Assembly: GCA_020850015.1 (NCBI GenBank)
Contig: JADZFF010000102.1
Span: 128-64,127 of the forward strand
Reading direction: 5' to 3'
Source of the DNA: Bdellovibrionales bacterium
Lineage (GTDB): Bacteria > Bdellovibrionota > UBA1018 > JADZFF01
Length of the DNA stretch: 64,000 nucleotides
Shown here: piece after piece, positions 3,587 through 18,929 of the stretch
How positions within the stretch are numbered: position 1 is the first letter of the stretch
Layout of the letters: the number at the start of each line of letters is the position of its first letter
The notes under the pieces: model-generated
The model's database searches: none
What the model saw: the letters and a program-made list of their open reading frames with translations, nothing else
Told to the model about the DNA's origin: nothing
Made by a program: the position numbers and the translations under genes

Positions 3587-5959
3587 ATGTCGGCCGCGCT
3601 GAAGCTCAAGATCTTCAAGGACGGCGCTCAGGTGAGGGAGGACCTCATCTCGGACAAGCTTGACGTCGGGCGGGGCGACGACTGCGTGATCCAGCTCGAC
3701 GACCGCGCAATCTCCCGGCGCCATGTCTCGATCCGGCCCGTGGATGGTGGCCTCGAGGTGGAGAAGCGCAGCGAGTTCGCGCCTCTTTCCGTGAACGGCG
3801 CCGAGTGCACGCGGGCCCTGGTGAAGGGCGGGGACGTGATCCAGATCGGCCCCTATCTGGCCCGCGTCGAGGAGCAGGCCACACAGCCCTCGCCGGCCGC
3901 GAAGCCGGCTCAGCGCGCGGCCGCGCCCCCGGCGGCTGACCCTCCCACCGCGATTCTGCCTTTGGAGAGTCCGGAGATGGCGCCCGTCGCCGAGCTCGTC
4001 GTCGAGCCCGAGCCTCAGACGGGGCAGGAAGGTGAGCTGCCTGAGCTGGCGCCCTTGGACCTTCCGGCGGCCGAGATCGCGCAGGAACAGGCGAGCGCCC
4101 TCGAGGAGGTGCCGGCGATGGAGGGCGATGGAGCCCTTGACGGCCTCGCCGCGCCCATCGAGGCCTCCTCCGGCGATGGGGACGAGTTCGCGGCCGCGCC
4201 GGCGATGGAGGATCCCGCCGGGGTGGCGGACCCCTATCCCGACGAGGACGGGGCTACGCGGCTGACTCCGATGGGCAACGTGCGCGTGATGCTGACGCTC
4301 GATCCTGGAAAAGCCAACGTCACGGAGTTCGAGATCAAGGGCAACGAGGTGATCCTGGGCCGCAGCAAAAATTGCGAGATCGTTCTCGAGGACAAAAAGG
4401 CATCGAGGAAGCACACGCTCGTGCGCAAGGCCGGATTGAATTTCGTGGTGAAAGACCTCGATTCGGCGAATGGGACATATCTGAATGGAGTGAAGATCCA
4501 GGAGCAGGAGCTCTCCGGGGACGACGTGATCCGCATCGGGGATACCGACATCCGATTCGTGGCTCTGAGCACCGAATACGAGGCGAACCAGGCCCAGTAC
4601 GAAAGCGTGCCGGAGGAGCAGGAATCGCCAGTGGGCGATGCGATGGGCGAGCAGCCGCTGGATCCCGGCCAGGGAGCGCTGATGGAGCAGCCAGGGGGAG
4701 ACATGCAGATGCTGGCCCCTGGTGGCCTCTCCATGGATCCCGGAGCGGGGGTCATCCAGGGCGCCCCCATCCTCGGAGCGCCGGCCATCGGCGAGGAACC
4801 GAAGAGCCTCATCGCGAAATTTCGCGCCATGGATCCGAAGAAGCGCCGCAAGCTGGTGATCTACATCGCCATCGGGGTGCTTCTGATCGACGAGGTCTTC
4901 CCTGATCCGGAACCTCCGAAGCCGAAGGCGGCCGCGGTCCAGAAGAAGAAAGCGGATCCCGGAGCGAAGACGGGAAAAAGAACCTTCGACGAGCTCTCCG
5001 ACGAGCAGAAGCGCTTCGTGGAGGCTCAGCACGCGCTTTCGTTCGAGAAATACAGGGGACAGGATTTCGATCAGGCGCTCTACGAGATCCAGAAGATCTT
5101 CGATCTGGTGGATGAGTACAAAAACTCCCGGGAGATCGAACGTTACGCCAAGGAGGGGAAGCGGAAGGCGGAGGTGATGAAGGAGGAGACGCGCAAGCGC
5201 GAGGAGGAGCAGCGTCTCAAGGACAAGATCGCGGAGCTGATCGACGAGGCCGGAAAGCTCATGGCGCAGAAGGCCTTCGACCAGGCCGAGCCGGTGTTCG
5301 GCCAGGTCCTGGCGCTGGATCCAGAGAACCAGGTTGTCCTGGCGTGGCAGCGCGAGATTCAGAAACACCGCGAGGAGCTAGCGGAGAAGGAGCGCGACCT
5401 CGAGATTCAGGCCCAAATCAACCAGAACGCCAAGGATCTGCTCGCCGAGGGGATCGCGCTGAAGGAGAAGGGCAAGATCTGGGAGGCCATCGAGAAGCTC
5501 GGCAAGGTCAAGGAGATCAACGCGAGCGACAGATCGATCGCGGCCGACGCTGAGACGAAGATCGAGGAGATCCGGTCCGAGATCAAAGCCAAGCTGGATC
5601 CGCTGATCGCCCAGGCGAAGGACAAAGAGGCCGCTTCCGAGCTCGGGGAGGCTTACCGACTCTTCGATGAAGCCACCAAGATCGACCCCCGCGATAAGCA
5701 GGGATTCGAGGGGATGGATCGAATCCGGGCCGTGCTCAACGACCAAGCCAAGGCGAAGTACGTGGAGGCCGTGGTGGCGGAGAGTTACAGCGACTTCGCG
5801 GTTTCCAAGAGGATCTTCGAGGAGATCGTCAAATCGGCCCCGCCGGGAACTCTTTATCATGAGCGCGCCAAGGCGAAGCTGAGACGCTACATCGTGCTGC
5901 CTCCCGAGGAGGATGGCGGCGGTTCCGGGGGCGGACCGCCCGCGGGGGGAGGAAACTGA
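3587..5959 (+). CDS. Dual-FHA membrane protein with acidic Pro-rich linker and long TPR/coiled-coil C-terminal region
   Basis: Two FHA patterns (LDVGRGDDCVIQLDDRAISRRHV... and VILGRSKNCEIVLEDKKASRKHT...KDLDSANGTYLNG) and a TM helix (LVIYIAIGVLLI), then about 330 aa of TPR-like/coiled-coil sequence. Confidence 0.8.
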   Translation: MSAALKLKIFKDGAQVREDLISDKLDVGRGDDCVIQLDDRAISRRHVSIRPVDGGLEVEKRSEFAPLSVNGAECTRALVKGGDVIQIGPYLARVEEQATQPSPAAKPAQRAAAPPAADPPTAILPLESPEMAPVAELVVEPEPQTGQEGELPELAPLDLPAAEIAQEQASALEEVPAMEGDGALDGLAAPIEASSGDGDEFAAAPAMEDPAGVADPYPDEDGATRLTPMGNVRVMLTLDPGKANVTEFEIKGNEVILGRSKNCEIVLEDKKASRKHTLVRKAGLNFVVKDLDSANGTYLNGVKIQEQELSGDDVIRIGDTDIRFVALSTEYEANQAQYESVPEEQESPVGDAMGEQPLDPGQGALMEQPGGDMQMLAPGGLSMDPGAGVIQGAPILGAPAIGEEPKSLIAKFRAMDPKKRRKLVIYIAIGVLLIDEVFPDPEPPKPKAAAVQKKKADPGAKTGKRTFDELSDEQKRFVEAQHALSFEKYRGQDFDQALYEIQKIFDLVDEYKNSREIERYAKEGKRKAEVMKEETRKREEEQRLKDKIAELIDEAGKLMAQKAFDQAEPVFGQVLALDPENQVVLAWQREIQKHREELAEKERDLEIQAQINQNAKDLLAEGIALKEKGKIWEAIEKLGKVKEINASDRSIAADAETKIEEIRSEIKAKLDPLIAQAKDKEAASELGEAYRLFDEATKIDPRDKQGFEGMDRIRAVLNDQAKAKYVEAVVAESYSDFAVSKRIFEEIVKSAPPGTLYHERAKAKLRRYIVLPPEEDGGGSGGGPPAGGGN

Positions 5960-6714
5960 TGCGCGGAAATCCGATGAAGGCGGTGACGGTGTTCACGAGC
6001 GCGGGCCAGTGCCCGTTCATCGAGGAGCACGCCGAGGTGAACCGCGACCGCGGGATCTTGGTGTTGGCGGATGGTTTCGGCGGTCCGGTGGCGGGCGCAG
6101 ACGCCGCCCGCTCGGCCTGCACGAGCGTACGCCAGTTTCTTGAGAAGGAGGCAGGCGACGAGGAGGCGACTCTGCCCTTTGTCCTCCGCGGATACTACTC
6201 GCTTGCCGGCAACGTGCTATTCAACGCGTTAGTACATGCGAACCGATCAGTTCGAAAGCTGAACGTTTCCCGCAACGTTCATGAGAAGGGAGGCGCCTCG
6301 GTTGCAGCGGGTTACCTGGATGGGAATCTGCTGGCGCTGGCCTCGGTGGGGGCCTGCCAGGCCTGGCTGTTTCGGGGCGGTAGGTCCGGGCGCCTGCTGA
6401 CTCCCAGGGACTACTCCTGGTTGCGTGATCCCCTGACCGAAGACCCGGAGCCCCAGTATCGCGCGCCCCTGGCCGCGCTGGGCATGCATGAGGACCTCGA
6501 GCCTGAGATCGTGGAATGCCAGGTGAGGCCGGGCGACTGGCTGCTGATCCACAGCGGGGGACTGGGTGGCGCCGCCCGGGGAAAACTACTGGAGCTCCAC
6601 CAGGACGCGGCGGACGAGCCCGGAGTTGCGGAAAGGGCCAGACGTGTCTTGGAAGACACCCAAAATCGGGGCGAATTTCAGTCTAACTGTTCGGCATTGC
6701 TTGCCTTATTTTAA
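5959..6714 (+). CDS. PP2C-like Ser/Thr phosphatase fold, possibly catalytically degenerate
   Basis: ILVLADGFGGPVAGADAA matches PP2C motif ADGMGG. The expected GDSR, SDGL and DNxT positions read GACQ, SGGL and SNCS. Its ATG overlaps the previous stop by 1 nt. Confidence 0.65.
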   Translation: MRGNPMKAVTVFTSAGQCPFIEEHAEVNRDRGILVLADGFGGPVAGADAARSACTSVRQFLEKEAGDEEATLPFVLRGYYSLAGNVLFNALVHANRSVRKLNVSRNVHEKGGASVAAGYLDGNLLALASVGACQAWLFRGGRSGRLLTPRDYSWLRDPLTEDPEPQYRAPLAALGMHEDLEPEIVECQVRPGDWLLIHSGGLGGAARGKLLELHQDAADEPGVAERARRVLEDTQNRGEFQSNCSALLALF

Positions 6715-6829: not shown

Positions 6830-7021
6830 ATGAAGTCATTGAAGAGCAAGCTTTTGAGCTTCCTGAGGGAAGAAGAAGGCCAGTCCACGACGGAATACAT
6901 TCTCATCTTGGCCGTCGTGATGGTGATCGCCATGAAGTTCAAGAGCGGCATCTCGGACCAGCTCGGGCGAGCCACCGAGAAGATCGGCGAGAAGATCGGG
7001 AACACGGTCGACGACATCTGA
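6830..7021 (+). CDS. flp: Flp/Fap family type IVb prepilin
   Basis: 63 aa with a basic leader, then the G/QSTTEY processing motif and a hydrophobic helix ILILAVVMVIAM. A GGAG RBS lies upstream. Confidence 0.85.
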   Translation: MKSLKSKLLSFLREEEGQSTTEYILILAVVMVIAMKFKSGISDQLGRATEKIGEKIGNTVDDI

Positions 7022-7098: not shown

Positions 7099-7138
7099 CG
7101 CGCCTACGTGTTAGAATTCCTTTGTGGGGGTATCAGAA

Positions 7139-7390
7139 ATGTTCACGCTCGCACGTGCGCCCACGGCGCCGCGGGCCCATTCCCGTCGCTCGGGACTTGT
7201 CCGTGACGAAAGCGGCCAGTCGACGGTCGAGTACATTCTTCTTCTCGCCTTCGCCATGCTCATCGCGGTTGGGATGTTTTCCGCCCTCAACGAGGGGTTG
7301 AACGAGGGGGTGCTCGCTTTCGGCGCGGCGCTCGAACGCGATCTGCAGACGGGAGGCATGCCTGCTGGCGCATGGGCCGAGGCTCTCTGA
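7139..7390 (+). CDS. Flp-type prepilin paralog with long leader
   Basis: G/QSTVEY motif followed by ILLLAFAMLIAVGMF. The ATG is at 7139, with an alternative GTG at 7124. Confidence 0.7.
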   Translation: MFTLARAPTAPRAHSRRSGLVRDESGQSTVEYILLLAFAMLIAVGMFSALNEGLNEGVLAFGAALERDLQTGGMPAGAWAEAL

Positions 7391-7403: not shown

Positions 7404-7919
7404 GTGGTGAGCGCCGCCGCCCTCTTGGCGGCCGCTACGGATCTTTTCCGGGGGAAGATCTACAACTGGCTCACCTTTCCGGTGGCCGTGGCAGGGCTTG
7501 TCCATGGCGCCTGGGGCGGAGGCCTCGCGGGGCTGGGATCCGCCGCCGCGGGCCTGGGATTGGGGCTTCTGCTGCTCGGGTGGATGTACCCCATGGGATT
7601 CATGGGGGCCGGCGACGTGAAGCTCCTGGCGGCGCTCGGCGCCTGGATGGGGCCCGCCCTCACCGTGGAAACCGCGCTGGTCTCGATCGCGCTCGGAGGG
7701 GTGTTGGCGCTCCTGCTGCTCGCGGTCAGGGGGAAGATTCGCGCGTTCCTGTCCAGGGCCTATCTCTTCCTGGCGGGAATCTTCGTCAAACAGCTCGTCG
7801 CTGCGCCGATGACGATCGACAGGTCGCAGCGAATGGCCTTCGGCCTGCCTTTGGCAGCGGCGGCGATTCTCTGCGCCTGGGACGACCCGTTCGGGAGGCT
7901 CGGATGGCGGCTCTGGTGA
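7404..7919 (+). CDS. cpaA: Prepilin peptidase CpaA/TadV (A24 aspartic peptidase)
   Basis: Polytopic membrane protein carrying both catalytic Asp contexts (AATDLFRGKIYN and GAGDVKLLAALG). Confidence 0.85.
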   Translation: MVSAAALLAAATDLFRGKIYNWLTFPVAVAGLVHGAWGGGLAGLGSAAAGLGLGLLLLGWMYPMGFMGAGDVKLLAALGAWMGPALTVETALVSIALGGVLALLLLAVRGKIRAFLSRAYLFLAGIFVKQLVAAPMTIDRSQRMAFGLPLAAAAILCAWDDPFGRLGWRLW

Positions 7920-8179
7920 AAGGGAATTCGGGGCAGACCACGGTTGAGTACATCCTCGTGCTCGCCGTGGTGGTTTCGTTCTTCGTGATCGTCCAGCGGG
8001 GCCTTCTGGATTCGGGCGCGATGGGAAAGCTCGGGAACATCACCTCGCGCGGCTTCAAGCAGGCATACGAGTTTGGACATCCGCGCGCCCTGGGCCCGGA
8101 TGAGGGCGGGCCCGAGAAGCACATCAGGATCCCCGAGGGGAACAATTTCCGGATGTTCATCAATCCCAGGGCGAATTGA
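7904..8179 (+). CDS. Flp-like prepilin/pseudopilin with C-terminal extension
   Basis: MAALVKGNSG/QTTVEYILVLAVVVSFFVI. The ATG at 7904 overlaps the cpaA 3' end by 16 nt. 91 aa. Confidence 0.7.
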   Translation: MAALVKGNSGQTTVEYILVLAVVVSFFVIVQRGLLDSGAMGKLGNITSRGFKQAYEFGHPRALGPDEGGPEKHIRIPEGNNFRMFINPRAN

Positions 8180-8190
8180 AGGAGGAGACC

Positions 8191-8718
8191 ATGAAGCTGA
8201 GGAAAAACGAGTCGGGACAGGCCACGATCGAGTTCGCGCTGACCTTGATTCTTCTCCTGGTCTTCGTCTTCTTCTACGTCCAGCTCGGCCTGGTCATGGC
8301 CTTCGCGAATTACGTTCAATACGCCACTTTCATGTCTTCCAGGGCCCTGGTGTCTTCCGCCGCCACGGATCAGGAGCAGAACGAGGCCGCGACCCGCGTC
8401 CTCGGAAGCATGGTCAAGAAAGGGGCCTTCGATACGGGCTCCGACCGCTGGCCCAGCATCGCCAAGGGCGTGGAAGGGGATGCGGTCGTAGGGGCCACCA
8501 TCGGCTCGGGCCCGCTATTCGCCCCGAAAAATAAGGATCAGTCTTGGCAGGAGGGAGTCCGATACACCTTCAGGAGCCGACTGTTCCTGCTGCCGTTCGG
8601 TGACGTGCCGGGCGCCATAAAATTGACGTCAGAAAGCTGGCTAGGGCGCGAGCCCACGAAGAGCCAGTGCGAGACGTTCATGAGTGGCGTTGGGGGGATC
8701 ATCGACAATGGCTGCTGA
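8191..8718 (+). CDS. TadE-like pseudopilin
   Basis: N-terminal ESGQATIEFALTLILLLVFVFF (TadE N-terminal motif). A GGAGGAG RBS lies at 8181-8187. Confidence 0.75.
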   Translation: MKLRKNESGQATIEFALTLILLLVFVFFYVQLGLVMAFANYVQYATFMSSRALVSSAATDQEQNEAATRVLGSMVKKGAFDTGSDRWPSIAKGVEGDAVVGATIGSGPLFAPKNKDQSWQEGVRYTFRSRLFLLPFGDVPGAIKLTSESWLGREPTKSQCETFMSGVGGIIDNGC

Positions 8719-9295
8719 GGAAAAGCCGGCCCCGGAAAGGAAACGGAGCGTCCCTGCGGGGGGCGATGCGGGGGAGTCCGGGCAAAGCATCCTGGAGTTC
8801 CTGCTCATGGTGCCTCTGATGATCGGTCTTTCGACGCTCATGGTGAGGGTGAATACGGTGATTCAGGTTTCGATAGCCAATCAGAAGTACGCGCGTGCCC
8901 AGGCGTTCTTCCTGACTTACAACAGCCCCTATTACCCGGAGCTGCGTCTTCGGCAGCGCCTGGTGAACCAGGAATCCAATGAGATGATCATCGGCGTATC
9001 CGACAAGATCGCGCCGAAGAGCGAGGATCAGGCGGAGTACGACCCGGATCCCATCATCGTTCCGATCGTCTCGGCGTCTTCGCTGGCGGGCGAAAGCCAG
9101 GAACCCGAGCTGCCCCCCGAAGGCGGGAAGCGCGGCCGCGTGCGAGTCCGCACCACCGTCACGCTTTGCACGCAAGTGAACGTCGTCGAGACGGGCGACG
9201 GTTTCGTGCCCTACGACGGGTCTTCGATGCTCACTGAGACCCCCGTCGCCGGGCAGGTCACGTTCCCGTTCTGCAGGGGGGTATTCAGTGAATAA
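8708..9295 (+). CDS. TadE/TadF-like pseudopilin
   Basis: ESGQSILEFLLMVPLMIGLSTLM motif after a charged leader. The ATG at 8708 overlaps the previous gene. Confidence 0.65.
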   Translation: MAAEEKPAPERKRSVPAGGDAGESGQSILEFLLMVPLMIGLSTLMVRVNTVIQVSIANQKYARAQAFFLTYNSPYYPELRLRQRLVNQESNEMIIGVSDKIAPKSEDQAEYDPDPIIVPIVSASSLAGESQEPELPPEGGKRGRVRVRTTVTLCTQVNVVETGDGFVPYDGSSMLTETPVAGQVTFPFCRGVFSE

Positions 9296-10166
9296 TCGCG
9301 CGCTCACGCTATCCGTGGTCATGGGCATCCTCGCGGTGTTCTTCGTGCAAAGCTATGTGACGAGCATCGAGGACGGGGCCCGCAAGAAATTCGGCACCGA
9401 GGTGCTGGTCGTCGCCGCGAAGCAGGATATCGAGGAGATGGGCACGATCGACGAGACGATGCTCGAGCTCAAACCGATTCCCAAGACCTTCCTTGAGCCG
9501 GCCGCGATGGCCTATACCAAGGGCGAGGACGAGCAGGCGATCCAGGCCAAGATCAAGGAGCTGGCCGGCTACGTGGCCAGCGTACCGATCCGCCAGGGCG
9601 AGCAGCTGACGCTGAACAAGATCGTGGAGCCGAGCATCCGGACCGGCCTGGCCCCTCAGGTCACGCCCGGGCGCCGCGCGATCGCGATCCAGGTGAATGA
9701 CATCAGCGCGGTGAGCAAGCTGCTGAAGCCGGGCGACCGCGTGGATCTGACCGCGGTGGTCGAAGTCCAGGCGAACGCCCGGGCAAACCCGCTTGCCACG
9801 AAGCTCGCGAAAACGATCCTTCAGGACATCGTGATCCTGGCCGTGGGCCAATCGGTGACGAACAACGCTCCGCGGATCTTCGAGAAGGACGGCAGCTCCA
9901 CGAAGGCGCCCCTCAAGATGCGCTCGCTGGTGACCTACAATCAGTACACTACGGTGACGATCGAGGTGGAGCCCGCCCAGGCCCAGATGCTGGCCCTCCT
10001 GAACGCCGGCGCGCTCGTGCTCACGCTCCGAAACAACGACGACTCGGAACGCGTGGGCCTCGCCGGCATGACGATGATGGACGTGCTCGGGGCCGACGCG
10101 GTGAAGATCCTGCCGCCGCCGCCCCAGGCGGCGCCGGTGGCCAGGAAACCGGCGGGAGGAAAGTAA
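9288..10166 (+). CDS. cpaB: Flp pilus assembly protein CpaB/RcpC
   Basis: N-terminal TM anchor, then a SAF-like segment (VLVVAAKQDIEEMGTI) and an RcpC-like beta-rich region. It sits between the pseudopilin genes and the secretin gene. Confidence 0.8.
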   Translation: MNNRALTLSVVMGILAVFFVQSYVTSIEDGARKKFGTEVLVVAAKQDIEEMGTIDETMLELKPIPKTFLEPAAMAYTKGEDEQAIQAKIKELAGYVASVPIRQGEQLTLNKIVEPSIRTGLAPQVTPGRRAIAIQVNDISAVSKLLKPGDRVDLTAVVEVQANARANPLATKLAKTILQDIVILAVGQSVTNNAPRIFEKDGSSTKAPLKMRSLVTYNQYTTVTIEVEPAQAQMLALLNAGALVLTLRNNDDSERVGLAGMTMMDVLGADAVKILPPPPQAAPVARKPAGGK

Positions 10167-10170
10167 CGGC

Positions 10171-11847
10171 ATGAAACGGCTCCTCCTGGCGGCGCTTCCC
10201 CTTCTCTCGGCGGCCATCCTGGCCGCTGGGGGAATCGTGCGCGCGGAGGATGAGGCACCCGCTGAGGCGCCTTCGCCCGCGGCGGTTCCGTCTGAGGAGG
10301 CTCAGGCCGCGCCAGCGGCTGGCTCGGACGAGGGCGGAGCGGAACCCGGAAAGAGCCTGATCAGCACGAAGTCGGAGAAATCGGCGGAAAGGCGCCGGGA
10401 GCTCCTCACGATCGGCGAGGACAAGCTCGTCGACCTGGAGTTCGACGCGAACGTGTCAGGCAACGGCGTGATCGAAGGCAACAAGGCCGTGGCGACGGCT
10501 CAGCTCGTGCGCGTCCTGGGCAAACCGAAACAGGTGCTCTTCAAGCCTTTGAAAGAGGGCACTACCACGGTTACCATTCGCGACTCGGAGGCGAAGGTGA
10601 GGGTGATCTTCGACATCACCGTCACCTCGACCAACCTGGCTCAGCTCCTCAGGGAGCTCCAGGACCTGCTTCGCGACATCGAGGGGATCGAGCTGCGTGT
10701 GGTGGGGAAGAACATCCTCGTGGATGGCGAGGTGCTGACGCCCAACGACTACGGACGCCTCCTGGGCGTGATCGAGGAGCCCAACTCGCCCTACAAGGAC
10801 GTGGTGATGAACCTCGTCATGTTCTCGCCTCTCGCTCTCCAGTCGCTCGCCAAGCGCATCGAGGGAGACGTAAAATCCTTCGCTCCCGAGGTGCGGGCCA
10901 GGGTGGTCAACGGCAGGATATGGCTCACCGGATCCGTTGAAAATCGCGACCAGGCTCGAAGGGCCGTGGCGGTTGCGGAGCTCTACGTTCCGGAGGTCCG
11001 GCCGCAGGAGCCCCTCGAGAAGTTCGACGAGAACGCGAAACGGCTCACGCCCAAGCCGCTCATCCAGAATTTCATCACGATCAACGCGCCTCCTCAGAAG
11101 AAGGAGGAGAAGCTCATCAGGATGACCGTTCACTTCGTGGAGCTGAACAAGGACTATGCCCGGACCTTCGGGTTCAAGTGGCAGCCGGGCTTTACCCAGG
11201 ACGAGAGCATCACGCTCGCCACGCAGGAGGACGGGGACGCCGGCGCCGGCGGCTCCGGGAGCTTCACCGCCACCATCTCCAACCTCTTTCCCCGCCTCCA
11301 GAGCGCTCAGTCCGCCGGTTTCGCCCGCGTCCTGAAAACTGGAACGATCATGGTACGGAACGGCCAGGCCGCCTCGCTTCGCGATCTCTCGGGGTTCGCG
11401 TTCTCGCTGCCCAACGCCGGCGGCCAGAGCGGCAACGAGCAGGTCACCACCGGGATCAACGTGGCGGCCACGCCGAAGATCGTGGGCAAGACCGAGGACG
11501 TGGAGCTCGATCTCGATCTGAGGCAGGTCAACATCATCGGCATCACCGTGCAGGGCGCGCCGATCACCGCTACTCACGAAGTGAAGACGAAGATCTTCGT
11601 GCGTTCCAAGGAGAGCGCCGCAGTCGCCGCGGTGAACAGCGCGGAGATCACGACGGAGTTCAACAAGACGGATCCCGCGCCGGGCAGCTTCAGCGGTCAG
11701 ACCGGGCCGCTTTTCTCGCTTCTTCGGTCGAAGGATTACCGGAAGAAGAAGAACCAGGTGGTGATCTTCGTCACGCCGCAGATTGTCGAGAACGCCTCCG
11801 ATGGAACCGCGGACCTCAAGAAGAACTTCAGGGTGAAGGCGGAGTGA
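10171..11847 (+). CDS. cpaC: Tad secretin CpaC/RcpA
   Basis: Signal peptide, BON-like N-domain and a secretin C-domain (ARVLKTGTIMVRNGQAASL...GPLFSLLRSKDYRKKKNQVVIFVTPQIV). Confidence 0.9.
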   Translation: MKRLLLAALPLLSAAILAAGGIVRAEDEAPAEAPSPAAVPSEEAQAAPAAGSDEGGAEPGKSLISTKSEKSAERRRELLTIGEDKLVDLEFDANVSGNGVIEGNKAVATAQLVRVLGKPKQVLFKPLKEGTTTVTIRDSEAKVRVIFDITVTSTNLAQLLRELQDLLRDIEGIELRVVGKNILVDGEVLTPNDYGRLLGVIEEPNSPYKDVVMNLVMFSPLALQSLAKRIEGDVKSFAPEVRARVVNGRIWLTGSVENRDQARRAVAVAELYVPEVRPQEPLEKFDENAKRLTPKPLIQNFITINAPPQKKEEKLIRMTVHFVELNKDYARTFGFKWQPGFTQDESITLATQEDGDAGAGGSGSFTATISNLFPRLQSAQSAGFARVLKTGTIMVRNGQAASLRDLSGFAFSLPNAGGQSGNEQVTTGINVAATPKIVGKTEDVELDLDLRQVNIIGITVQGAPITATHEVKTKIFVRSKESAAVAAVNSAEITTEFNKTDPAPGSFSGQTGPLFSLLRSKDYRKKKNQVVIFVTPQIVENASDGTADLKKNFRVKAE

Positions 11848-11851
11848 GGTC

Positions 11852-13993
<2,142 letters not shown>

Positions 13994-14003
13994 GGGGAAG
14001 GGG

Positions 14004-14879
14004 ATGTTTTCGAGCTGGGAGGCTTTTCTGGGGATTCTGGGCATCGGCGTGGCCGTCGGTGGGATCTCCTATCGCTACAACAAGCGGTTCCTGGAGTGGC
14101 TCCGCTTCCACTCGATCGGCACCCGCGATTACATCGCCGAGCGGCTTTCCTCCATGTTCATCGAGATCCCGCCCAATACGATCTTGATCGGGCAGTTCAC
14201 GCTGAGTTTCGGGTTGGGGTCGGTTGTCTTCCTCCTCCTGCTCCCTAAGTGGTTCCTCGGCCTGTTATTGGGAGGGATTGTGATGATCGTCGGCTGGAAG
14301 GTGCCGAAGCCGGTGGTCGACATGATGTATTCCCGACGGGTCAGCAAGCTCGTGGCCCAGATGGTGGACGGCCTGGGATTGATGTCCAACGGGATGAAAT
14401 CAGGCCTGTCCGTGGTCCAGGCGATGGGCCTCGTGACGCAAGAGATGCAGAACCCCATCCGGCAGGAGTTCGAGCTCATCCTGAACGAAAACAAGTTGGG
14501 CGTCTCGCTGGAGGAGGCGTTCACGAATTTCTCGAAAAGGGTGAAATCGGACGACGTGGAGATGTTCGTCACCTCCGTGAACATCCTGAAGGAGACCGGC
14601 GGGAATTTGGCGGAAACCTTCGATACGATCGTCTCCACGATCCGCGAGCGCGTGAAAGTGGAGAACAAGATCAAGGCTTTGACCTCGCAGGGGCTCGTGC
14701 AGGGGATCTTCGTGATGTCCGTGCCCCCGGTCCTGGGGTTTCTGCTGTATCAGAGCGATCCGGACTTCATGCGGCCCCTGTTTACGACTACCATTGGATT
14801 GATTGTCTGCATGGTGATCGTCGTTCTGGAAGTGATCGCGTTCTTCATCATCAGGAAGATCGTCACGATCGACGTATAA
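14004..14879 (+). CDS. tadB: Flp pilus assembly platform protein TadB (T2SS-F family)
   Basis: A single T2SSF-type domain (LVAQMVDGLGLMSNGMKSGLSVVQAM...NILKETGGNLAETFDTI) flanked by TM helices. Confidence 0.8.
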   Translation: MFSSWEAFLGILGIGVAVGGISYRYNKRFLEWLRFHSIGTRDYIAERLSSMFIEIPPNTILIGQFTLSFGLGSVVFLLLLPKWFLGLLLGGIVMIVGWKVPKPVVDMMYSRRVSKLVAQMVDGLGLMSNGMKSGLSVVQAMGLVTQEMQNPIRQEFELILNENKLGVSLEEAFTNFSKRVKSDDVEMFVTSVNILKETGGNLAETFDTIVSTIRERVKVENKIKALTSQGLVQGIFVMSVPPVLGFLLYQSDPDFMRPLFTTTIGLIVCMVIVVLEVIAFFIIRKIVTIDV

Positions 14880-14922: not shown

Positions 14923-16614
14923 ATGCATCGTCAAAAGTCCGCCACTCGCTCGCTTGGTATCTTCGCGGCCGCGCTTCTCCTAGGCGCCGCCGCGCCCGCC
15001 CTGGCGAACGTCAGCCTCCGAAACGGGAACTTCTTCATTGGATACACGGACATCATCTATCCGGGGGGGTTCGAGCCCAAGATCGAGCGTGTCTACAACT
15101 CGAAGTCCGGGTTCAGGGGGATCTTCGGCTGGGGTTGGGGAACCGAGTACGAGGTGCATCTCAAGGTGGCCGCCGACGGCAGCGTCGTGGCTCATGAGTA
15201 CGGCGGCGGCGCGGAGAACAGGTTTTCCCCCGTGGCTTTCAACCAGGCGCAGCTTCAGGGAGCGGCCGACGAGATCGCGGCGGCCGCTCAGAAAGCCGGC
15301 GCCGTGGGCAGCGCGGGCCAGTTGGCCGATCTTAAGAAAAGGCTCCTGGGCGACGCGCGTTTCCGCAACCAGGAATGGGAGAAGTACATCCAGCGCGGGC
15401 TCCTGAAGCCCCGGCAGCTTCCGGCGGGGACCCAGCTCACCTCGAATCGCTTCAGTTATCAATACATCACCAAGGTGAAGGACGGGTATGTCCGGAGCTA
15501 CGACAACGGGCGCGTGGAGCAGTTCGCCGAGAACGGCCGCCTCCTGAAGATCTCCGACAAGAACAACAACTTCATCCAGATCTCGTATTCGAAAGACGGC
15601 AAGGCCGACAAGATCGTCGACAACTTCAACCGCAAGATGTTCCTGACCTACAACGCCCAGGGGAACCTGGTGAAGATCCAGGGTGAGAACGGGAAGGAGG
15701 CCGCCTATACCTACGGTTCGCGTGGCGAGCTCCTTACGAGCAAGGACGTGGATGGCAACACCTACGCCTACACCTACGACAAGATCTACAACCTGACCCA
15801 GGTGAAGTACAAGGACGGGACGTCGATGGATATCGCCTACCTGGGCCGGGATCAGAACGATTCCGTGAGATCCGTGAAAGACCGGGATGGAACGCGCACC
15901 GACTACACCTACGACTGGAGCAAGAAGGAAACGGGTTTCCGCTCGGTGGGCGTGAAGGTTCTCGATAAGGATGGGAAGCGGGTCATCTCGCAGAGCGGAT
16001 ACGAGTACCACCTTAAGCGTAAGGCGAGCGGCGAGGAGTGGACCTACAAGATGGTCACCACCATCGACGGCGACCGCAGCGAGACGATCTACAACGAGTG
16101 TTGCGGCCTTCCGCTGATGATCAAACGCGGCGGCGAGGAAACCACTTTCGAGTACGACACGAAGGGGCACGTGACGAAGAAGACCACCCCCACCGAGACG
16201 ACCGTGCTCGCCTACGACCCGAAGCTGGGCAAGGTGACGAAGGTGATGCGCCAGTCGAAGGTGAGCAAGGCGAGCTCGAGTTGGTCGGAGTTCCAGTACG
16301 ACGGCAAGGGGAACCTGGTGTTCGCGAAGAACTCGACGAACAAGGGGGTCCGCCTGTTCTACGACGCCAACGGACGGATCAAGAGCATGGTGGACCAGGA
16401 CCGCCGCCGCATCGACTTCAAGTACAACGAGAACTCGAAGCCGGTGGAGATCACCGACCCCCAGCTCGGCACCATCCGCGTGAGCTACTCGAACAGCGGG
16501 GAGATCAAGAAGGTGGAGAGCACCGCGGGCCGGAAGATCGCGCTGCAGGTGACTTCGGCCTTCCAGAACCTGCTCGACATCATCCGCCCGGCGGGCGTGA
16601 GCCTGAGCTTCTAG
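14923..16614 (+). CDS. Secreted RHS/YD-repeat protein without recognisable C-terminal toxin or core
   Basis: Signal peptide (AAPALA/N) and a DUF6531-like start (GNFFIGYTD...RVYNS...GIFGWGWGTEYE). Many YD repeats follow (YTYGSRGELLTSKDVDGNTYAYTYD, FEYDTKGHVTK, FYDANGRIKS). It ends ...VSLSF. Confidence 0.8.
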   Translation: MHRQKSATRSLGIFAAALLLGAAAPALANVSLRNGNFFIGYTDIIYPGGFEPKIERVYNSKSGFRGIFGWGWGTEYEVHLKVAADGSVVAHEYGGGAENRFSPVAFNQAQLQGAADEIAAAAQKAGAVGSAGQLADLKKRLLGDARFRNQEWEKYIQRGLLKPRQLPAGTQLTSNRFSYQYITKVKDGYVRSYDNGRVEQFAENGRLLKISDKNNNFIQISYSKDGKADKIVDNFNRKMFLTYNAQGNLVKIQGENGKEAAYTYGSRGELLTSKDVDGNTYAYTYDKIYNLTQVKYKDGTSMDIAYLGRDQNDSVRSVKDRDGTRTDYTYDWSKKETGFRSVGVKVLDKDGKRVISQSGYEYHLKRKASGEEWTYKMVTTIDGDRSETIYNECCGLPLMIKRGGEETTFEYDTKGHVTKKTTPTETTVLAYDPKLGKVTKVMRQSKVSKASSSWSEFQYDGKGNLVFAKNSTNKGVRLFYDANGRIKSMVDQDRRRIDFKYNENSKPVEITDPQLGTIRVSYSNSGEIKKVESTAGRKIALQVTSAFQNLLDIIRPAGVSLSF

Positions 16615-16750
16615 GGCCATGCCCCGGAGGCCGACCAAGGATTCGACAGATAACAGCGTTCAGTCGGAGGCCGGGCCCATGTGTCGGGTCGGACACGGAA
16701 CTAAGGGCCTGGAATCAAAGGGGACCGAAATTCCCGCGCGAAGCGAGGCG

Positions 16751-16821: not shown

Positions 16822-17001
16822 ATGAACAAGCAATTTTCCCTGAAGGCCCTTTTCGCCCTCGTGCTGATCGCCGCGTCGATCTCCAGCGGTTCGGTGCTGG
16901 CCTGCGGCGGCACGAACGACTCGAGCGACTCTAACCCGCCGCCGGATGCCACGGGCACCGGTCCCGGCACCGGTGGCGGCGCAGGCGGCGCGAACCCGTA
17001 A
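16822..17001 (+). CDS. 59-aa predicted lipoprotein with disordered Gly/Pro/Thr-rich mature part
   Basis: ATG with an AGGAG RBS. The signal peptide ends in a lipobox-like VLAC. It is not in the ORF track (<60 aa). Its sequence is MNKQFSLKALFALVLIAASISSGSVLACGGTNDSSDSNPPPDATGTGPGTGGGAGGANP. Confidence 0.5.
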   Translation: MNKQFSLKALFALVLIAASISSGSVLACGGTNDSSDSNPPPDATGTGPGTGGGAGGANP

Positions 17002-17034
17002 TCTCGCGGGACGAGCTCACAATCGATTTTCTTG

Positions 17035-17068
17035 GGAAGGGCGCGGGCCAGTCAGGCCGCGCCCTTCC
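17035..17068 (+). terminator. Strong GC stem-loop after the small lipoprotein gene
   Basis: GGAAGGGCGCGG ... CCGCGCCCTTCC (12-bp perfect stem), followed by a ~150-nt C-rich, G-poor tract. Confidence 0.5.
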
Positions 17069-17221
17069 TGCTTTCCGCCCGCCAACTGATCTCCCACCTC
17101 TGTCCAAGCACTAGCCACCCGCCAGCCTGGGTCACGGCTGACCTCCCCACCCCCCGATTCCGCTTCCCCGCGGGCACCTGAAAACCCCAATCATTTCCGA
17201 ACTTCACCGGGTGTGTCACTG

Positions 17222-17342: not shown

Positions 17343-17618
17343 ATGAATAAGCGCCTTGTTTCGATCATGATGTTCGGTGTGTTTCTTTCCCCCAACGTCC
17401 TGGCCGTTTCCTCGGGAGCCGGTCATGTCGTGCTGTTTGAAGCCAGCGAAGAAGAACGTCCCTCGGGCCGCGCGGCGGGCCGCGACGCCGGTGAGATGAC
17501 CCTGTCCGAGCATTCGGGCAAGGACGCTCAGTGCGCGTTCGATGCGAACCCCCGCCACGCGTTGCTGGAGCGCTCTGGCGACTCCGGCGCCGCGGGACGC
17601 GGCTCGCGCGCGCTCTAA
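17343..17618 (+). CDS. Small (91 aa) secreted hypothetical protein, low complexity
   Basis: GGAG RBS, and the signal-peptide-like MNKRLVSIMMFGVFLSPNVLAVSS. The mature part is charged and Gly/Ala/Ser-rich. No recognisable family. Confidence 0.45.
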   Translation: MNKRLVSIMMFGVFLSPNVLAVSSGAGHVVLFEASEEERPSGRAAGRDAGEMTLSEHSGKDAQCAFDANPRHALLERSGDSGAAGRGSRAL

Positions 17619-17736: not shown

Positions 17737-17997
17737 TTACTTCGACGGCTTCGAGTTGAGCTCGCGAATGAGATCGCGCAGCTTCTGGCGCTCGGTGGTG
17801 AGCAGCTCCTCGGCCGATTTCAGGCCCTTCGCCGCGGGAGTGTCCCCCGAAAGCTCCCGCTCCGCCGCCGCCATCCCGGACTTCACGTGATCGGAAACCG
17901 TGCGTCCGTCCCATCGCAGCCAATGGCCCACCGCGAGCACGATCAGGGCAAAAGCAGCCACCTTCAACAGCGTCCAAACGGCTTTAAGCATGCGCAT
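17737..17997 (-). CDS. Small single-pass membrane protein with C-terminal coiled coil
   Basis: MRMLKAVWTLLKVAAFALIVLAVGHW gives a TM helix. Its start overlaps the stop of the upstream CheX-like gene. Last gene of the operon. Confidence 0.45.
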   Translation of the reverse strand: MRMLKAVWTLLKVAAFALIVLAVGHWLRWDGRTVSDHVKSGMAAAERELSGDTPAAKGLKSAEELLTTERQKLRDLIRELNSKPSK

Positions 17998-18442
17998 CTC
18001 CAGGGAGCGAGGCATCGCGCTCCGTGACCACGATGATCTCCCGGCCTGCGGCTCCGCCGGGCAGGTGAAGGTATCGGATGATTTCGGCCTCCGGGGTGGC
18101 GGCGAGCCGCATGGCCAGGGCTACGGCGTCGGACTCGCGTTTCAAGGAGGGCGGAGAGGGAAGCCCGGCCCAGAGATCGGCCAGCCGGCTTGCCAGGAGG
18201 TTTCCGAGCTCGCACCAGGGTGAGGCATCGCCGTCGTCCTCGAAGAAGACATGAAGCAGCGCGGAGCCATCCAGGCCGTGCACGGAAAAGCTGGCGCAGG
18301 CCGGGCGCAGGAAGGCGTCCGCGGGGTTGCGCTCATCCGTTGGCGCGGGGGCGCCGTCGCCCCCCGCGCGTTCCACGCGCCCAAGCCCGTAGAAATCGAA
18401 CGCCAGAGGCAGGAGTTCAGACGCTGAGTGGGCGGAGCTCAT
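17984..18442 (-). CDS. CheX/CheC-like phosphatase candidate
   Basis: SPWCELGNLLASRLA fits the CheC/CheX active-site motif S-x3-E-x2-N (compare ELGNMTAGKLA in CheX). Size ~150 aa. An ATGA overlap joins it to the upstream CheY-like gene. Confidence 0.4.
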   Translation of the reverse strand: MSSAHSASELLPLAFDFYGLGRVERAGGDGAPAPTDERNPADAFLRPACASFSVHGLDGSALLHVFFEDDGDASPWCELGNLLASRLADLWAGLPSPPSLKRESDAVALAMRLAATPEAEIIRYLHLPGGAAGREIIVVTERDASLPGDAHA

Positions 18443-18852
18443 GTCGCGTTCTTCGGGGATGGGTGGGGCCGGGCCTCCACGCGTTCGCTGCCCGTGAGCG
18501 CGTGTTCCAACGTCTTCAGGACATCATCCTTCGTGAAAGGCTTCAGGATGTAATCTTTGGCGCCGGCGTTGATCGCTTCCATCACCAGGTTTTCCTGGCC
18601 CATGGCGGAGATGATCACCACCTTGGCCTCCTTATCGAGCTTCATGATCCGGCGGGTGGCCTCGATTCCGCTGAGCTTCGGCATCACCACGTCCATGGTC
18701 ACCAGATCGGGCTGGAGCTGGCGGTAAAGCTCCACGGCGTGCAGGCCGTCCTCCGCCTCGCCCACCACCTGATAGTGACCCTCGGAGAGGATCTGGGTGA
18801 GCGTGCGCCGCACGAAGGCCACGTCATCAACAATGAGGACAGTACGAGCCAT
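18439..18852 (-). CDS. cheY: Single-domain CheY-like response regulator
   Basis: VLIVDDVAFVR...DLVTMDVVMPKLSG...VIISAMG...DYILKPF, so all receiver signature residues are present. A GGAGGG RBS precedes the ATG at 18852. Confidence 0.85.
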   Translation of the reverse strand: MARTVLIVDDVAFVRRTLTQILSEGHYQVVGEAEDGLHAVELYRQLQPDLVTMDVVMPKLSGIEATRRIMKLDKEAKVVIISAMGQENLVMEAINAGAKDYILKPFTKDDVLKTLEHALTGSERVEARPHPSPKNAT

Positions 18853-18929
18853 CCCTAGCCCTCCAGGTGAATAGTGTACTGGGAAGACCCGGAAGGGCAA
18901 AGGGGGGACGGCGAATTGACGGCGGCCCC

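Follow-up and report, generated by a model that had tools for sequence, protein, structure and literature searches.

A toxin-less, Bd0109-type DUF6531/YD-repeat protein in the Flp/Tad locus of an uncultured Bdellovibrionota lineage

The window analysed here, a 64,000-nucleotide (nt) stretch of contig JADZFF010000102.1 from a Bdellovibrionales bacterium, contains a complete Flp/Tad operon, whose last large gene (14923..16614, + strand) encodes a 563-amino-acid (aa) exported protein with an N-terminal DUF6531 domain followed by YD repeats of the RHS type. This protein belongs to the family of Bd0109, a component of the hit locus of Bdellovibrio bacteriovorus; it lacks the toxin features of the polymorphic Rhs toxins and lies in a gene neighborhood that is conserved across related loci. 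We assign a probability of about 0.8 to the reading that the gene is the counterpart of Bd0109 in an uncultured, high-GC (guanine plus cytosine) lineage of Bdellovibrionota, with a product that is a toxin-less, exported, pilus-modulating partner of small peptides. The GC content is 62-70% in the window, and the host belongs to an uncultured lineage with 64% GC. Positions below are counted from the first letter of the window, and residue numbers are those of the 563-aa protein, referred to here as the RHS protein.

Domain architecture, conservation and predicted structure

The gene and the distinct regions of its product are as follows (all on the + strand):

14923..16614, + strand: Bd0109-type toxin-less DUF6531/YD-repeat protein, 563 aa (open reading frame (ORF) with ATG start, profile matches, structural model)
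14923..15006, + strand: signal peptide, residues 1-28, with predicted cleavage after ALA (sequence reading, alignment with Bd0109)
15010..15198, + strand: DUF6531 domain, residues 30-92 (Pfam PF20148, E 6e-12)
15244..15393, + strand: three-helix insert, residues 108-157 (AlphaFold helices 108-125, 131-143 and 145-157)
15433..16521, + strand: YD-repeat beta-sheet, residues 171-533, ~34 strands (Pfam RHS_repeat, NCBIfam YD_repeat_2x, DSSP, Foldseek)
16099..16104, + strand: vicinal Cys-Cys, residues 393-394, in a CCGxP motif; the only cysteines of the RHS protein
16528..16593, + strand: conserved C-terminal helix, residues 536-557, ...AFQNLLDIIRPAG (helix in the model; nearly invariant in the clade)

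A gap of 43 nt separates the stop of tadB (14004..14879) from the ATG of the RHS gene, which is preceded by a Shine-Dalgarno-like G-rich run. Read by eye, the N-terminus MHRQKSATRS-LGIFAAALLLGAAAPALA, with NVSL after the predicted cleavage site, is a typical Sec signal peptide, and the n-region, h-region and AxA layout can be recognized in MHRQKSATRSLGIFAAALLLGAAAPALA directly before NVSL. The cleavage site aligns with the SignalP site of Bd0109 (between AFA and LV; PMC3818213), and the corresponding stretch has a low predicted local distance difference test score (pLDDT) in the AlphaFold model. Beyond the signal peptide the profile matches comprise DUF6531 and RHS_repeat (Pfam, E 1e-22 for the latter), with YD_repeat_2x as the NCBIfam match, and the last residues are ...PAGVSLSF. 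A first-pass annotation, made by a model from the letters of the stretch, had described an exported 563-aa protein 43 nt after tadB with a DUF6531-like start, many YD repeats and an end in ...VSLSF, all of which is borne out. The identical NCBI entry is named 'MAG: RHS repeat protein [Bdellovibrionales bacterium]', where MAG denotes a metagenome-assembled genome. An antisense 552-aa ORF (14980..16638, - strand) was rejected as a high-GC mirror ORF, the homology and domain evidence being entirely on the + strand.

An exhaustive search of 50%-identity representatives recovered 977 proteins at E <= 1e-30. The top 150 representatives are almost all 540-600 aa long and align end to end down to ~30% identity. 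Among the matches listed, at least 119 clusters (formed at 90% identity) share 60-69% identity with the RHS protein over essentially its full length; these 119 clusters, from Bdellovibrionota/Oligoflexia MAGs, encode proteins of 524-595 aa. With more than 120 clusters of same-length homologs, 541-595 aa long and at 60-69% identity, the ORF is far beyond what chance would produce. Most of the deeply conserved residues of the family are found in the DUF6531 domain; the C-terminal 30 residues (...AFQNLLDIIRPAGVSLSF) are among its best-conserved parts, and Bd0109 carries a recognizable version of the C-terminal helix: TFNNLLDIIAPAT.

This conservation bears directly on the relationship to the classical Rhs toxins (RhsA 7q97, Tse15 8uxt, RhsP 8h8a and WapA of B. 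subtilis). These share with the RHS protein the YD-repeat beta-sheet and, in many cases, the DUF6531 domain, and they are its best Foldseek and Protein Data Bank (PDB) sequence matches. In contrast to them, the RHS protein has about half the repeat length and lacks a PAAR/VgrG region, a core aspartyl protease, a variable toxin and an immunity gene, and its C-terminus is conserved instead of polymorphic. Searches against Pfam and NCBIfam at E <= 0.01 found neither the RHS-associated core (TIGR03696) nor a toxin domain in it. The sole match named 'RHS_core', NF041261, scores 51 bits against a cutoff of 2000 and covers the repeat region alone, and a DPQLG sequence at residues 512-516 belongs to an ordinary YD repeat, in which D512 is replaced by Arg in Bd0109. 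In place of a variable C-terminal toxin domain, the ~30 residues after the repeats form the nearly invariant helix; in place of PAAR/VgrG or another trafficking N-terminus, the protein begins with the Sec-type signal peptide followed by DUF6531. The prediction that an RHS core and a toxin tip would be lacking thus agrees with the profile searches and with the conserved C-terminus. With its constant length and its conserved final 30 residues, the RHS protein is not a polymorphic toxin.

One could still regard it as a decayed or truncated Rhs toxin, i.e. an orphaned piece of shell, deprived of core, toxin and immunity genes, that came to lie beside the Tad locus by chance. RHS repeats together with DUF6531 are indeed typical of Rhs toxins, and some databases call homologs 'WapA'. 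However, the full length is constant across the 119 listed clusters and in homologs down to ~30% identity, the C-terminus is conserved, the linkage to tadB recurs in 31 of 33 loci (see below), the N-terminus is a Sec signal peptide instead of the PAAR/VgrG type, and bd0109 appears to be essential. This reading is effectively refuted because of the conservation.

The first-pass annotation had also suggested predicting the structure. The AlphaFold2 model (from a 31-sequence alignment; pLDDT 85.3, predicted template modelling score (pTM) 0.68) comprises the signal peptide, a beta-rich N-terminal domain, the helices at 108-157, ~34 consecutive strands at 171-533 and the helix at 536-557. Its top Foldseek matches in the PDB are the Rhs cocoons of type VI secretion systems (7q97, 8qja, 8uxt, 8h8a), the teneurins and TcB/TcC, with E down to 2e-23. 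The best superposition, on Tse15 (8uxt), spans 532 columns with a root-mean-square deviation of 5.3 A and a template modelling (TM) score of 0.58 when normalized by the query and 0.25 when normalized by the target; across cocoons of 1000-1400 residues the respective ranges are 0.50-0.58 and 0.25-0.29. The prediction thereby yields an Rhs-like YD sheet of approximately half the cocoon size: ~365 residues versus roughly 1000 in the solved Rhs cocoons. Because the sheet covers only part of a cocoon, the monomer could not close, and the model points to an open, curved half-shell of about half the Rhs-cocoon size rather than a closed toxin capsule. The TcB/TcC cocoon and the teneurin YD shell likewise share the spiral YD-repeat sheet architecture, but they are closed shells of ~800 to 2000 residues around a toxin or a domain, for which the window monomer is too short.

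It is rather improbable that the RHS protein is an encapsulation and delivery device, in which at least two copies, or a single copy together with a different partner, would close into a cocoon that encloses and releases a disordered peptide. Such a device would fit the structural resemblance of the YD sheet to Rhs cocoons, the small and disordered nature of the partner peptides described below and the published hypothesis that 'Bd0109 encapsulates Bd0108' (Prehna et al., PMC4267844); moreover, possible plugs exist in the conserved helix at the C-terminus and in the N-terminal domain. Set against this are the short sheet, the absence of evidence for oligomerization, the lack of a protease that would release the cargo and the low affinity of Bd0109 for Bd0108.

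The vicinal CCGxP cysteines are a clade-specific trait: the motif is present in 102 of 120 window-clade homologs and in 0 of 120 Bdellovibrio-clade homologs. As the cysteine counts of the homologs are mostly 0 or 2, i.e. both residues are gained or lost as a pair, the sequences suggest that Cys393 and Cys394 may form a vicinal disulfide.

Relation to Bd0109 and conservation of the locus

The link to the WapA/RHS-like protein at the edge of the Tad-like pilus cluster of B. bacteriovorus, which the first-pass annotation had put forward as a candidate counterpart, could be traced to Bd0109 itself. The published expression primers (Capeness et al., PMC3818213) define the mature N-terminus of Bd0109 as LVDMKNANYS and its C-terminus as PATAELYL. 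From a representative with similar termini (P0210), a homolog search led to a second one (P0292), which has the exact primer-derived termini and the AFA-LV cleavage site and hence is Bd0109; its UniRef name is 'rhs family, Bdellovibrio bacteriovorus, Q68VD7'. An exact contig search with a published primer used for reverse-transcription PCR of bd0109 returned only a chance 20-mer match in an Enterobacteriaceae genome. Residues 12-561 of the window protein align with residues 5-549 of Bd0109 with 34% identity, 53% positives and few gaps (BLASTP, E 8e-99), and both have the DUF6531 plus RHS_repeat Pfam architecture.

Bd0109 (of the hit locus, Q68VD7 family) and the window protein are alike in their signal peptide, DUF6531 domain, YD repeats, C-terminal helix, length of ~550 aa and absence of protease and toxin, and also in their setting: each gene lies directly 3' of a gene for a 291-aa TadB and is followed by small secreted ORFs and a convergent CheY gene. 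They differ in that Bd0109 has four dispersed cysteines, as opposed to the lone vicinal Cys-Cys of the window clade, in that the identity is limited to 34%, and in that the window small ORF has no detectable homology to Bd0108.

The gene order of the locus agrees as well. In the B. bacteriovorus locus (L079) a Flp1-like pilin gene and four small genes are followed by RcpC (298 aa), a secretin (510 aa), a CpaE-TadA fusion (736 aa), a T2SSF protein (291 aa) and Bd0109 (551 aa). Directly 3' of Bd0109 come a 96-aa signal-peptide protein, which is the Bd0108 orthologue (CKEC), and a 57-aa signal-peptide protein; genes for a membrane protein of 86 aa and for a response regulator lie on the other strand. 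The window locus matches this order gene for gene. Co-conservation with tadB, the other check proposed at the outset, was assessed in a set of 77 related metagenomic loci, 33 of which are informative for the upstream DNA: tadB lies directly 5' of the RHS gene in 31 of these 33, with a median gap of ~32 nt, as it does in B. bacteriovorus.

In B. bacteriovorus, bd0108 to bd0111 are co-transcribed, Bd0109 binds Bd0108, mutations in bd0108 alter piliation and permit prey-independent growth, and bd0109 could not be deleted (PMC3818213). Bd0109 has neither a protease nor a toxin region, and its partner Bd0108 is intrinsically disordered (PMC4267844); the authors proposed that Bd0109 regulates or monitors the pili or that it encapsulates Bd0108 (PMC3818213, PMC4267844). 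Also reported in this literature (PMC3818213, PMC4267844, PMC5430801) is that the attack-phase core of Bdellovibrio-like organisms includes the bd0109-0119 TAD operon. Tad linkage of Bd0109 homologs in other bacteria is already in the literature, a Bacteriovorax homolog has small signal-peptide neighbors (PMC4267844), and in 20 Bdellovibrionales MAGs arrays of two or three short secreted genes accompany Bd0109 homologs (PMC10469934). Lack of a toxin, linkage to Tad genes and small secreted neighbors have therefore all been published before; the window adds a rather divergent member of the family and comparative detail.

Small secreted proteins and the proposed role of the RHS protein

Downstream of the RHS gene, on the same strand, are two small ORFs separated by a hairpin:

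16822..17001, + strand: s1, 59 aa, with a signal peptide, a Cys and a Gly/Pro/Thr/Ser-rich tail (GAGGAG ribosome-binding site)
17034..17068, + strand: GC-rich hairpin 3' of s1 (RNA fold of 17000-17090: -42.3 kcal/mol, z = -3.4)
17343..17618, + strand: s2, 91 aa, with a signal peptide and one Cys (ORF)

The claim that no immunity-like ORF follows the RHS gene stands with respect to immunity genes, since no cognate cytoplasmic immunity gene was found directly 3' of it and the ORFs there encode signal-peptide, low-complexity proteins; precisely these two ORFs (16822..17001 and 17343..17618) had been overlooked. The tiny secreted regulator that the same annotation named for the hit locus has its positional counterpart in s1, which had escaped notice. 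The hairpin has a stable fold and likely marks the end of the operon; a terminator scan with a T-run criterion did not call it because its T-run is weak.

Such small ORFs are a near-universal feature of these loci. Of 50 related loci, 47 have a small signal-peptide-like ORF on the same strand within 600 nt 3' of the RHS gene; the opposite strand has one in 2 of the 50, and shuffled sequences have one in 13% of cases. Medians are 76 aa for the length of these ORFs and 144 nt for the gap. Where 1300 nt of downstream DNA are available, two or more such ORFs occur in 16 of 39 loci. The small proteins follow a common plan of a signal peptide, an optional short linker often with G-Q/E, a conserved Cys and a low-complexity tail, with exactly one Cys outside the first 15 residues in 36 of 51. 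s1 is 45% identical to the corresponding ORF of one related locus (L002) and falls within a 32-member single-linkage cluster of first-position small ORFs; for s2 no sequence relatives were detected. In s1, as in the proteins of L002, L008, L035 and L063, the linker is missing and the Cys abuts the signal peptide, which in s1 creates a lipobox-like VLAC. Because of this, the s1-type peptide could be a lipoprotein in the window lineage and a soluble protein elsewhere.

s1 is the counterpart of Bd0108 in position and character, homology aside. Both lie on the same strand directly after the RHS gene and have a signal peptide, and both are small, with a low-complexity, apparently disordered mature part that contains cysteine. 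Bd0108 differs in its length of about 100 aa (101) versus the 59 aa of s1, in the absence of significant sequence similarity and in having a CxxC rather than a single lipobox-like Cys; furthermore, s1 is followed by a second small secreted ORF.

A disulfide between the Cys-Cys of the RHS protein and the single Cys of the small peptides was considered and ruled out: the Cys pairs come and go jointly, and single-Cys peptides persist at loci with a Cys-free RHS protein.

By analogy with Bd0109 and Bd0108 (PMC3818213, PMC4267844), we infer that the RHS protein would be made alongside the Tad machinery and then exported as a YD half-shell. This half-shell would bind the small disordered peptide or peptides encoded just downstream, and the interaction would modulate pilus extrusion or retraction and the signaling that depends on it. 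Homology and synteny are the grounds on which the window protein most likely acts like Bd0109.

A different role, which we consider unlikely, is that of a surface or secreted adhesin, or of a carbohydrate- or cell-wall-binding factor of the Tad pilus, instead of a periplasmic peptide-binding regulator: the protein would for example leave the cell via the secretin, or sit at the base or tip of the pilus, and bind the prey envelope. The first-pass annotation, too, had named an adhesin as one option. The Sec signal peptide and the membership of a pilus operon are compatible with this role, sugar binding has been associated with YD repeats, a function at the interface of cell wall and pilus fibre was suggested by Capeness et al. 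(PMC3818213), and predation depends on the operon's Flp pilins (PMC5430801). However, no adhesin, lectin or anchoring domain was detected in the RHS protein with Pfam and NCBIfam, there is no evidence of export past the periplasm, and the near-universal small secreted ORFs together with the binding of Bd0108 by Bd0109 favor a peptide-binding role. The two roles could also coexist.

Several observations weigh against the proposed identity with Bd0109 and its peptide-binding, pilus-modulating role. An all-against-all phmmer comparison found no significant similarity between the small downstream ORFs and Bd0108, and a profile of 31 first-position ORFs reached Bd0108 with an E of 0.066 in a set of 75 sequences, so that homology was not detected. 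Identity to Bd0109, at 34%, only slightly exceeds the 30-31% shared with short DUF6531-YD proteins that are encoded away from Tad genes (P0229, P0253), and the neighbor-joining tree of the RHS proteins is star-like at depth; for these two reasons the orthology of the window gene with Bd0109 is a positional one, based on synteny. Two homologs with 47-51% identity (L037, 646-2304; L039, 2130-3845) have no tadB upstream, the genes there being unrelated (in L039 a gene for a 688-aa TPR protein precedes); they could be paralogues or have been translocated, for which B. exovorus offers a reported precedent. The half-shell is deduced from size, strand count and Foldseek coverage rather than from coordinate geometry. 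Finally, the affinity of Bd0109 for Bd0108 is low (PMC4267844), and the localization of Bd0109 was determined only in E. coli.

The short DUF6531-YD paralogues mentioned above (P0229 and P0253, together with bd1292, bd3309, bd0328 and bd2719 according to PMC3818213) share length, architecture and 30-31% identity with the RHS protein, but they adjoin genes for giant VIT/TPR or uncharacterized proteins, away from tadB, and no small secreted ORF was noted directly downstream of them. Three such non-Tad loci (L080, 6001-10754; L081, 6001-11045; L082, 2845-10301) encode DUF6531-YD proteins of 560-574 aa with 30-31% identity, directly followed by large proteins of 1017 aa (VIT/TPR/YfaP_C) and of 1107 and 1911 aa, the latter two reaching the end of the retrieved sequence. 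These large neighbors may constitute a different partner system for the same half-shell.

A wider interpretation, to which we would give somewhat less than even odds, is that the hit-locus module is ancestral and conserved across Bdellovibrionota, and that the small peptides are phylum-wide functional equivalents of Bd0108. The module would consist of the Flp/Tad operon, the toxin-less YD half-shell, one or two fast-evolving, secreted and disordered peptides, usually with a single Cys, and the convergent CheY. Bd0108 is usually described as unique to some Bdellovibrio; if the module is indeed phylum-wide, Bd0108 would represent just one local form within a class of peptides that partner the Bd0109 family, and the half-shell would be a general peptide receptor or chaperone that gates pilus activity and growth signaling. 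In Bdellovibrio, Bd0109 and Bd0108 are placed at the point where growth switches between dependence on prey and independence of it. That the module recurs in a distant lineage, uncultured and high in GC, argues for an origin older than the genus. The comparative data, i.e. the invariant residues of the RHS proteins and the shared traits of their partner peptides, could guide structural and binding experiments on Bd0109.

The Flp/Tad operon and its flanking genes

The remaining genes of the operon and those convergent with it are the following:

6830..7021, + strand: 63-aa pilin of the Flp type, with which the Tad operon begins (Pfam Flp1_like at E 2e-7, short of the gathering cutoff)
7124..7390, + strand: second Flp-like pilin, true start probably internal (contains ...GQSTVEYILLLAFAML, read from the sequence alone)
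7404..7919, + strand: prepilin peptidase, TadV/CpaA-like (Pfam Peptidase_A24, E 1.4e-15)
8176..8718, + strand: TadE-like pseudopilin (Pfam TadE E 8e-7; conserved in related loci)
8684..9295, + strand: conserved Tad-locus protein (same position in related loci, 30-45% identity; no Pfam match)
9288..10166, + strand: RcpC/CpaB (Pfam RcpC E 1e-20, SAF)
10171..11847, + strand: secretin, RcpA/CpaC-like (Pfam Secretin E 1e-11, BON)
11852..13993, + strand: fused MinD/ParA-like (CpaE/TadZ-type) and TadA ATPase, 713 aa (Pfam, NCBIfam)
14004..14879, + strand: TadB/TadC-type platform protein with a single T2SSF domain, 291 aa (Pfam T2SSF E 2e-17)
17737..18015, - strand: small membrane protein, 92 aa, convergent (opposite-strand position conserved in ~15 related loci)
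17984..18442, - strand: 152-aa protein
18439..18900, - strand: CheY-like single-domain response regulator, convergent (Pfam Response_reg E 3.5e-30)

The G/QSTTEY motif of Flp pilins is visible in the translation of the first pilin ORF. The ATPase fusion has a CbiA/ParA domain at its residues 4-211 and a T2SSE domain at 363-638 (Pfam), with a TadA-family match at E 1e-94 (NCBIfam); the same CpaE-TadA fusion, of 736 aa, is found in B. bacteriovorus, whose counterpart of the window TadB has the equal length of 291 aa. Classical Tad loci carry TadB plus TadC; the window locus has a single T2SSF platform gene. A listed ORF at 7580-8179 (+ strand) overlaps the prepilin peptidase gene in another frame, yet tblastn matches the C-terminal part of its translation to related loci. 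A start near 7930 is probable for the real gene, whose product would be a small, conserved protein of the Tad locus.

On the far side of the small secreted ORFs, a CheY-like gene adjoins the locus both in related loci and in B. bacteriovorus, and beyond it in the window, on the strand opposite to the RHS gene, lies the gene for Lon. Both the small membrane protein and the CheY-like protein occur at this convergent position in numerous related loci as well as in B. bacteriovorus (L079), which suggests a conserved signaling link to the hit-like locus.

Directly 5' of the Flp pilin genes, a 790-aa protein (3587-5959, + strand) has two FHA domains and weak TPR matches, and a weakly PP2C/SpoIIE-like phosphatase (5959-6714, + strand) is encoded between it and the pilin genes. 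These two proteins may provide a phospho-dependent regulation of the Tad system.

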